Source: Thermoproteota archaeon (GTDB lineage: Archaea; Korarchaeota; Korarchaeia; Korarchaeales; Korarchaeaceae). Taken from it: a DNA stretch of 23,918 nucleotides. The DNA is taken from positions 1-23,918 of the forward strand of contig JAOZFG010000002.1 of assembly GCA_027491435.1 (NCBI GenBank). The letters are read 5' to 3'. This document shows positions 8,359-9,522 of the stretch, piece by piece. Each line of letters starts with the position of its first letter. Position 1 is the first letter of the stretch. The notes below the pieces were generated by a model. That model made no database searches. It had not been told where the DNA came from and worked only from the letters and a program-made list of their open reading frames with translations. A program made the position numbers and the translations under genes.

Positions 8359-8372
8359 GAAAAGTTTTTAAG
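8359..8372 (+). promoter_or_regulatory. BRE/TATA promoter of carAB
   Basis: GAAAAG followed by TTTTTAAG (8365-8372), ending 21 nt before ATG 8394. Same geometry as the promoter at 3807. Confidence 0.65.
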
Positions 8373-8393
8373 AGCTCGTGGTGTCACGTGAAG

Positions 8394-9522
8394 ATGTCGG
8401 TGAGCGTCCTTCGGCCTTCCCTGTCGTGAAGCCTTCCTCCTACTTGAGGATGGCACCTACTTCAAGGGTTGTGTCAGGACTGAGGCTTCAACGGCGGTAG
8501 GAGAGGTCGTATTCACCACGGGCATGGTGGGATACACCGAAGCCTTCACAGACGCCAGCTACAAGGGCCAGATCTTGGTGATGACGAACCCCCTCATCGG
8601 GAACTACGGGGTGAACCCTGAGGACTTCGAGTCTGATGGGATCAAAGTTGAGGGGCTTGTGGTTTACGAGGTAACCAGGCCGAGCCACTACACTTCCAGG
8701 AAAGGCTTGATAACTTGGTTCTCTGAGGAGGGCGTCCCAATCCTGGAGAGAGTAGACACCAGGGCGCTAGTCAAGAAGTTAAGGGACGAGGGCGTTCAAA
8801 TGGGTATAATATGGCAGGGAGACCTGGAAACTGCCTACCAGAAGCTGAAATCATCCCCTAGGTATGAGGAGGTGGACTACGCCAGGCAGGTCTCCCCAAA
8901 GGGGCCCGTGGTGGAGAGGCCTGAGGTTCAGAGGGGGTTGAGAGTAGCAGTAGTTGACTGCGGTCTCAAGAGGGGGATAGTGAGGCAGCTCCTTGAGAGG
9001 GGCCTGGAGGTAATCAGGGTACCTTGCTGGTGGAGGGCTGACCAGATAGCCCAGCTAGAACCTGACGGACTTCTGCTTGGAAACGGCCCAGGAAACCCAG
9101 AACTAATTAAGGGTTTGGGCGAGGAAGCCGTAGACCTAGCTAAAGACGGGATCCCGGTTATGGGCATCTGCCTGGGCCATCAGCTGATCTCCCTGGGGCT
9201 GGGGGCCAGGACCTTCAAGATGAAGTACGGGCACAGGGGTCAGAACAAGCCCTCTGTGGACCTGAGGACGGGGAGGTGCTACGTAACGAGTCAGAACCAC
9301 GGGTATGCGGTGGATGTTGACAGCCTGAGGGACGCTAACCTGGTAGCCTGGTTCATGAACCCTGACGACAACACTTTGGAGGGTGCCTACCACCCGGACC
9401 TTCCCGTAGCCACTACCCAGTTCCACCCTGAGGCCGATCCAGGCCCCCAGGACACCTCCTGGATTTTCGACCTGTTCGTTGAGGCGATGGGTGAGGGAGT
9501 ATGGAGGTTCCAAAGAAGGTGA
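8394..9522 (+). CDS. carA: Carbamoyl-phosphate synthase small (glutaminase) subunit; 5' end requires a frameshift (ORF track starts at internal ATG 8524)
   Basis: [13 protein letters not shown] and [12 protein letters not shown] lie in frame upstream of and across 8524. Also has PLIGNYG, GPGNP, GICLGHQ (catalytic Cys), GHRGQN, SQNHGYAV and QFHPEA. The gene identity is secure; the start position is inferred. Confidence 0.93.

Follow-up and report, generated by a model that had tools for sequence, protein, structure and literature searches.

Yeast Ty1 shifts ribosomes one base forward at CUU_AGG_C, a seven-base site which, as summarised in PMC5009743, works alone at about 40% with no further signal, and influenza A virus makes PA-X at UCC_UUU_CGU, where the P-site tRNA slips onto UUC while the rare codon CGU stands in the A site (PMC3498833). 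In the available text of both sources, these sites work without further signals (PMC5009743, PMC3498833). In the mitochondria of glass sponges, +1 shifts are described at the rare CGG_A and UGG_A, with CGG skipped and GGA (Gly) read (PMC5009743). For Archaea, the available text of a 2021 review gives one demonstrated frameshift in a cellular gene, which is in the -1 direction, and a +1 shift only suggested, for one archaeal virus (PMC8211752); the same source describes a -1 frameshift on A_AAA_AAT in fucA1 of Saccharolobus solfataricus (PMC8211752). Here we analysed a stretch of 23,918 nucleotides (the window), which is contig C27 of an archaeal draft genome (G000, 1.64 Mb in 43 contigs), and in which carA, the gene for the small subunit of carbamoyl-phosphate synthase, lies in the +1 frame of a short promoter-proximal open reading frame (ORF). 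We consider it likely that the genus makes its CarA through programmed +1 frameshifting of the ribosome at a slow-to-decode CGG codon, in the manner of Ty1 and PA-X. Our literature search found no report of frameshifting in carA, nor of such a +1 site in a cellular archaeal gene.

Frame layout and N-terminus of carA in the window

The carA frame is open from a TGA at 8401-8403 and contains no ATG, GTG or TTG between this TGA and an ATG at 8524, as the initial annotation of the window had described. The features of the locus are as follows:

8365-8372, forward strand: TATA-like box TTTTTAAG, 21 nucleotides 5' of ATG 8394, a leaderless-type promoter spacing
8394-8429, forward strand: short zero-frame ORF of 11 codons from ATG to TGA (MSVSVLRPSLS, then stop), the proposed translation start
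8401-8403, forward strand: TGA closing the carA frame upstream; a shift must fall between here and 8429
8409-8415, forward strand: proposed +1 shift heptamer CTT CGG C, with CUU (Leu) for the P site and the rare CGG (Arg) for the A site
8413-9522, forward strand: carA, in the +1 frame of the short ORF, with stop TGA 9520-9522; Pfam PF00988 and PF00117, TIGR01368
8524-8526, forward strand: first in-frame ATG of the carA frame, a conserved internal Met (Met41) in the motif TTGMVGY
9501-12593, forward strand: carB, the large subunit, overlapping the end of carA by 22 nucleotides and free of CGN codons

The short ORF reads ATG TCG GTG AGC GTC CTT CGG CCT TCC CTG TCG TGA (8394-8429), and its distance from the TATA-like box and the position of carA in its +1 frame are as first reported. 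Four other gene starts of the window had been given the same spacing of 20-22 nucleotides past a similar A/T box; we found three (3836, and 14223 and 15739 on the reverse strand). The spacing is less clear for two further genes, and at 23690 (reverse strand) it is larger, at about 31 nucleotides. The 17 codons that run from 8404 up to LLLEDG were read by eye and include no single-base variant of ATG either. CGG is the only arginine codon of the short ORF. By comparison, carA has 21 AGG, 3 AGA, 1 CGT and no CGG, and carB has 60 AGG, 6 AGA and no CGN codon, and the noted preference of the two genes for AGG and AGA holds (24 of 25 arginine codons in carA, 66 of 66 in carB).

The sequence encoded upstream of ATG 8524 matches the CarA family. 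In the open frame, the Pfam domain of the carbamoyl-phosphate synthase small chain starts at residue 12, which precedes the first ATG by 29 residues. When the ORF from 8524 is compared with the NCBIfam equivalog TIGR01368, the match begins only at profile position 32 (376.6 bits), whereas the shifted reading from ATG 8394 (P0003) covers positions 2-359 with 415.9 bits (cut-off 307.35); 31 positions of the family profile are encoded upstream of ATG 8524. An AlphaFold2 model of the plain open frame (P0001), built on that translation with 29 outgroup sequences, has a mean predicted local distance difference test score (pLDDT) of 92.1 and places strands at residues 8-14, 19-24 and 31-38, all upstream of Met41, with pLDDT means of 97, 92 and 91 for the three ten-residue blocks of residues 11-40. 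Because ATG 8524 encodes a conserved internal Met and both profile positions and modelled strands lie upstream of it, it is not plausible as the start of carA. The amidotransferase triad (C259, H344, E346) is invariant in the CarA alignment, carB follows directly 3', and the predicted CarA of the window has 375 residues; judged from these sequence features, the product of the shifted reading is the small subunit of a glutamine-hydrolysing carbamoyl-phosphate synthase.

The initial annotation had also allowed for two more trivial origins of the layout, and neither agrees with the data. An error of sequencing or assembly is hardly credible: the genome is a draft in many pieces, but the same layout occurs in nine other assemblies, making ten separate assemblies, and a 1053-nucleotide contig from a different public DNA run spans 8355-9288 with 66 differences (93% identical) and no gap. 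A search of sequencing runs for the locus gave this single DNA run (word share 0.05) and no RNA run. A G lost at 8426, which would give a protein beginning MKAFLLL, was rejected since conservation of the carA frame as coding sequence sets in before that position (FG..C-K/R).

Among the neighbouring genes, the ORF of 1468 residues directly 5' of carA (3836-8242, forward strand) has no Pfam match at E<=1e-5, and the same holds for the window ORFs at 12580-14223, 14262-15266 and 15263-15739, all on the reverse strand.

Conservation and evolution of the CGG sites in the genus

The genus sample comprised 21 genomes, 10 of which have carA (the window and L003-L011), with CarA proteins 60-64% identical to that of the window. 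Several genus genomes without carAB are 99% complete and consist of one or two contigs. Searches of genomes and metagenome contigs yielded no new member of the genus; the best other matches, at most 53-59% identical, were used as outgroups (the 59% match is the same contig as G003).

All ten carA genes share one arrangement at the first site (site 1): a promoter-proximal ATG, two to five codons, (C/G)TT-CGG-C, a stop one to four codons further on, and the CarA N-terminus in the +1 frame. The heptamer is CTT CGG C in eight genomes and GTT CGG C in two, and a conserved GTTAATTTTTTAWATG-like TATA-like box lies about 27 nucleotides 5' of the ATG in the nine relatives. Because the whole arrangement recurs in all nine other carA genes of the genus, the layout of the window is more than chance. 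The initial annotation had left room for relatives with a continuous in-frame start and no shift site; the opposite was found, and the place (CTT-CGG-C), direction and predicted product of the shift it had proposed agree with the heptamer kept in ten of ten genes. The +1 frame at site 1 is closed by a stop two to seven codons upstream, with no start in between, in four of the ten (the window, L003, L005 and L007).

Eight of the ten genes, all except those of the window and L003, contain a second +1 break (site 2) of the same kind about 30 codons past site 1, within the third beta-strand and 24 nucleotides before the codons for GMVGY. Its sequence is GTT CGG TGA in six genomes and GTT CGG AGA in two. 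The final frame has no start codon upstream of site 2 in three of these eight genomes; in the other five, upstream starts vary in position by lineage and would leave a protein truncated by about 20-30 residues or more. The pre-shift frame continues for 20 more codons beyond site 2 in L005 and L007. Taking both sites together, the P-site codon and next base are NUU_C at 18 of 18 sites, and the E-site codon ends in C at all 18 (TAC, TTC, GTC or CGC), which codon bias may explain in part. The shift sites are kept, while the upstream DNA that flanks them is variable in 40 of 48 columns. In the CarA tree, the window is basal in the genus and site 2 occurs in two clades. This leaves two histories for site 2, two separate gains or a single gain with a precise loss in L003.

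One reading rule accounts for all ten genes. If each in-frame CGG is treated as a +1 step (CGGN read as Gly), every gene can be translated from ATG to natural stop into a protein of 371-375 residues; the in-frame CGG codons of the ten genes number 18 and are exactly the 18 sites, with none elsewhere. The doubly shifted product of L006 (P0004) matches positions 1-359 of TIGR01368 in one stretch and also aligns in one stretch to residues 3-376 of E. coli CarA.

Outside the genus, carA starts normally. Among 38 outgroup loci, of which three are fragments, the match reaches the N-terminus in 35, and all 35 have an in-frame start, as does carA of the neighbouring genus (L012). In a sample of the phylum (43 genomes, 14 with carA), the breaks occur in this genus only.

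Substitutions between the two sites follow the predicted frame. Summed over the 15 pairs among six genomes with identical spacing (pairs that are not independent of each other), the predicted frame has a ratio of synonymous to non-synonymous differences of 80:94, the two alternative frames have 29:133 and 36:124, and the rest of carA has 1053:1383. In the eight two-site genomes, 16, 11 and 23 of 32 columns are variable at codon positions 1, 2 and 3, respectively. By this pattern of change, the stretch between the sites evolves as coding sequence. These data bear on the possibility that carA is a decaying pseudogene in a genus which is losing carAB. The gene is interrupted once or twice, and carAB is present in just 10 of 21 genomes, as such decay would have it. 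Against this, none of the ten genes, at 60-64% identity, is interrupted anywhere except at the 18 CGG sites, the catalytic Cys, His and Glu do not vary in the alignment, synonymous and non-synonymous differences stand in the same ratio between the sites as in the remainder of carA, and the breaks fall at identical places and motifs. We regard decay as highly improbable, and a maintained gene read through a +1 shift as the better account.

Decoding of CGG and a possible link to arginine

A genome-wide count confirmed that CGG is rare, with 516 occurrences in 1278 long ORFs of G000 (1.15 per 1000 codons; AGG, 49.6 per 1000), and this rarity suggests slow decoding of the codon. Genes for tRNA-Leu(GAG) and tRNA-Val(GAC), both with G34, are present in the genome, and G37 is found in these two tRNAs as well as in tRNA-Arg(CCG). 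Position 37 of archaeal tRNAs is usually methylated, and this modification is known to restrain +1 shifts. The genes for tRNA-Arg(CCG) and tRNA-Arg(UCG) are 96% identical, with three differences in 75 nucleotides (G000 C10:101982-102056 and C5:206790-206864), and in the search of the relatives these two isoacceptors were inseparable. Some ARAGORN calls had to be reinterpreted: a 'tRNA-???' is an intron-containing tRNA-Ser, and a second 'ccg' call is an intron-containing tRNA-Tyr. A further call, an 87-nucleotide tRNA-Val(TAC) at 10364-10450 (reverse strand), lies antisense inside carB; its stems are poor, with mismatches and G-U pairs, and the call is almost certainly false.

On these observations the following course of events is proposed. 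Translation would start at ATG 8394, at or near the 5' end of the mRNA (the box-to-start spacing is observed, and from it we infer the start of transcription), and Met-Ser-Val-Ser-Val-Leu would be read first. The ribosome would then pause at 8409-8415, its P site holding CUU and its A site the rare CGG, and either the peptidyl-tRNA(Leu) with anticodon GAG would re-pair one base forward on UUC, or a Gly-tRNA would bind the out-of-frame GGC. By standard wobble rules, the G34 wobble pair on NUU would become a Watson-Crick pair on UUC. GGC (8413-8415), the post-shift codon of the window, would be read next, and the carA frame would continue to the complete CarA. Ribosomes that decode CGG normally would stop four codons on at TGA 8427-8429 and release an 11-residue peptide and no CarA. 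In most relatives, the second site GUU-CGG-U/A would make the yield of CarA depend on two shifts in series. We infer both this slip and a rise of its rate when charged tRNA-Arg(CCG) is scarce, which would make CarA synthesis vary inversely with arginine supply.

The same heptamers could also be read by four-base decoding, with tRNA-Arg(CCG) occupying CGGN and inserting Arg instead of Gly at each site. In its favour, G37 is present in all three tRNAs, and loss of m1G37 is known to promote +1 shifts (as described in PMC8384417). This decoding would nevertheless put Arg in the place of the nearly invariant Gly of the GEVVF motif, which the GGN codon readable after the site-2 shift supplies, and for that reason skipping of the C of CGG is favoured over a four-base reading by tRNA-Arg. 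It would also leave the conserved NTT before CGG without a role, and no tRNA with an eight-base anticodon loop was found in the genome. Four-base decoding is accordingly rated very unlikely beside a slip of the P-site tRNA.

Crude scans of G000 for a second gene with the +1 layout found none, and genes with a start in the +1 frame could be missed by them. TTCGG occurs in 2008 copies, 105 of which pass a filter for ORF geometry (16 of these were read by eye), and in 18 of the 105 the +1 frame lacks a start. Short ORFs with CGG were also sought from promoter positions, with 27 matches; the three that were inspected, one at an unidentified ORF and two at genes resembling L7Ae and RNase HII, do not have the +1 layout. 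A pyrF-like ORF (G000 C15 at about 21617, reverse strand) is preceded by an out-of-frame GTG AGG GTT CCA CTT CGG A. Because this GTG is only about 3 nucleotides past a TATA-like box and an in-frame TTG start follows, its CTT CGG A is probably there by chance.

The presumed slow codon encodes the very amino acid whose pathway CarA feeds, and argG, argH and an OTCase-type gene are also present in G000. A short ORF of leaderless type, in which TAC CGG A never varies, stands before argGH in each of the 19 genus genomes with argG (21 searched):

G000 contig C2, about 15200-15290, reverse strand: argGH leader ORF (locus L195; relatives L196-L213 and L219)

This leader begins about 25-35 nucleotides past a TATA-like box and encodes M-(R/S/H)-Y-R-(R/I)-x-x-x-stop, with the codons GTG/ATG-(CGT/AGT/CAT)-TAC-CGG-(AGA/ATA), three further codons and a stop; it has eight codons in 18 genomes and seven in G000. 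In the sister genus, of which one genome was examined (L219), the leader is shortened to six codons, and it is absent from the two more distant genera examined (L220, L221). Being rich in rare arginine codons, it is, on sequence grounds, a candidate arginine-responsive leader and gives circumstantial support to arginine sensing at carA.

The stop of the leader overlaps a codon of the argG frame, which is TTG in most genomes (TTGA), CTG in G000 and L219 (CTGA) and TTA in four (TTAA). In G000, L200 and L219, argG has no in-frame ATG, GTG or TTG before the AYSGG ATP-binding motif, and the residues LPE(I/M)P upstream of the overlap codon look conserved in the argG frame. A frameshift was tried as a reading of argG as well; it would have to be -1/+2 from the leader in most genomes, and +1 from the first GTG in G000 and four others. 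Because no single frameshift model fits all genomes, the leader was kept as an upstream ORF (uORF).

From these data a codon-based arginine switch might be envisaged, in which translation of CGG reports the charging of tRNA-Arg(CCG) and CarA is made only when arginine is short; we put it forward tentatively. Two sites in series would sharpen the response. If carA is indeed frameshifted, the chance that the shift responds to arginine seems to us a little short of even, and with both steps counted together, the carA shift as an arginine sensor is possible and still somewhat doubtful. With the same reserve, the carA sites and the argGH leader could form a small translational arginine regulon that needs neither a repressor protein nor a riboswitch.

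Several observations weigh against an arginine-sensing frameshift in carA, some of them against the shift and others against the sensing. An ordinary tRNA-Arg(CCG) gene is present in one copy, and the search of the genome for a tRNA with an enlarged (eight-base) anticodon loop was negative. In-frame (C/G)TT CGG is also present in 12 further long ORFs of G000, against 18.8 expected, and their +1 frame closes within 1-32 codons; since a shift there would abort the protein, the heptamer must be not very efficient or dependent on context. No convincing conserved RNA structure was found downstream (consensus fold -13.4 kcal/mol over 164 columns, covariation term -1.6). According to the tree, the ten genomes with carA represent only about four to five lineages, so that the counts of 10/10 and 8/10 overstate independence. 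The presence of carAB in only 10 of 21 genus genomes means that it is dispensable in some species, and this counts against arginine sensing.

The upstream sequence of site 1 is a further such point. In six of the ten genomes (L004, L006, L008-L011), no stop closes the +1 frame upstream of site 1 and the frame contains a start codon; in five of the six this start falls 12 codons upstream, within the TATA-like box. If transcription starts further upstream, those six do not strictly need site 1, and on the present sequences the strict need for it is limited to the window, L003, L005 and L007. For site 1 alone, the short ORF might then be an ordinary uORF, with CarA made by re-initiation, from a non-canonical start, or from the upstream start in the six genomes, and argG of the same genus does seem to use a uORF whose stop overlaps the gene start. 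On the other side, the carA frame of the window has neither ATG, GTG, TTG nor a single-base variant of ATG from TGA 8401 to LLLEDG, nearly every lineage has a different codon over the uORF stop (CGT, TAT, TGT, GTT, ACT, ATT), the upstream start of five genomes lies within a conserved TATA-like box, and site 2, with the same heptamer, is left unexplained. An ordinary uORF is very unlikely, and frameshifting remains our preferred reading of site 1.

Site 2 raises a different question. In L004-L011 its heptamer is what the conserved Phe-Gly-Glu codons TTC GGT GAG yield when the reading is one base early (NTT CGG TGA), so that a single base inserted anywhere upstream would be enough to produce heptamer and stop, making this a 'latent' shift site in carA. 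As the heptamer arises in this way, site 2 may be a tolerated indel rescued by a shift-prone sequence and not a purpose-built sensor, which also weighs against sensing. G000 moreover has one carAB, two genes of the OTCase/ATCase family and a pyrF-like ORF, and because carAB is single, a shut-off of CarA at high arginine would cut pyrimidine synthesis.

Both points favour a reading in which the +1 shift is real but acts as a constitutive, perhaps inefficient, rescue of fixed one-base insertions, setting a low constant level of CarA with no sensor: the heptamer of site 2 comes free from TTC GGT GAG, the single carAB also feeds pyrimidine synthesis, and 'translational correction' of indels is treated as a recognised class of frameshift in PMC5009743. 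Set against it are two like sites kept in one arginine-pathway gene over about 40% protein divergence, the presence of site 2 in two clades, the conserved CGG leader ORF that argGH has of its own, and the identity of the presumed slow codon, which stands for exactly the amino acid of the enzyme's pathway. We take constitutive rescue as a serious possibility, short of probable.

Comparison with known systems

If real, the arginine switch would bring two firsts, a programmed +1 frameshift in a gene of a cellular archaeon and 'hungry-codon' frameshifting put to natural use as feedback from an amino acid. The conserved +1 site in carA would show that archaeal ribosomes use slow-codon shifting of the Ty1/PA-X type, and its compact seven-base motif would be testable in archaeal reporter systems. 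Should the shift respond to arginine, it would be a new way of sensing an amino acid via its own rare codon. Gene callers will annotate such a carA as truncated at Met41 or as a pseudogene, and metabolic reconstructions of these uncultured archaea built on this annotation would wrongly score arginine and pyrimidine synthesis as broken.

The arginine attenuator peptide of fungal CPA1/arg-2, of about 24 residues, stalls the ribosome by its own sequence, with no change of frame. The likeness to carA lies in the proposed control by arginine of the small carbamoyl-phosphate synthase subunit, exerted at translation via a short upstream frame. However, the short ORFs here have 5-11 codons and no conserved peptide beyond [LV]R; by these features, with no sequence comparison to the fungal peptide made, they are unlike an attenuator of this kind.

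With antizyme, which responds to polyamines, and bacterial RF2, carA shares the logic proposed here, in which the full-length product needs the shift and the rate of the shift reports a quantity related to the product. The sites of these two depend on a stop, whereas a stop directly follows CGG at only 6 of the 18 sites in carA. A stop-dependent site was rejected: the stop of site 1 lies one to four codons past CGG at no fixed distance, which also disposes of the antizyme-like shift at TCG-TGA considered in the initial annotation, and TGA follows the CGG of site 2 in six of eight genomes, not in L005 and L007.

The archaeal fucA1 likewise is a chromosomal gene in two frames, with recoding and rare codons near the site, and differs in its -1 direction, in having been found in a single species and, in the available text, in having no link to the end product of a pathway (PMC8211752). 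The glass-sponge sites, as presented in PMC5009743, resemble those of carA in that a very rare CGG is skipped for an overlapping Gly codon; they belong to an organelle with a reduced tRNA set, whereas a tRNA-Arg(CCG) gene is present here.

Closest in form are PA-X and Ty1. Judged by the account in PMC3498833, the PA-X site and the carA sites share the pattern NNC_NUU_CGN, with an E-site codon ending in C and a G34 that gains a Watson-Crick pair. PA-X is a minor alternative product of a virus translated by eukaryotic ribosomes, while the shift in carA would make the main and only functional product. Ty1, and also ABP140, combine a P-site CUU with a rare A-site arginine codon and a following C, and give Leu-Gly as the product (PMC5009743), as proposed for the window. 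Compared with the Ty1 site as described there, the presumed slow codon in carA is CGG and not AGG, the slip would be onto UUC and not UUA, and GUU also serves as P-site codon. The gene here is an archaeal chromosomal gene of biosynthesis, its shift lies at codons 3-7 of a probably leaderless mRNA, and it would be needed for the only product of the gene, whereas the shift of Ty1 serves a fusion protein. What carA has in common with sites of the Ty1/PA-X type is a two-frame architecture with a start-less +1 frame, a P-site codon that can re-pair one base forward, and conservation of the site.

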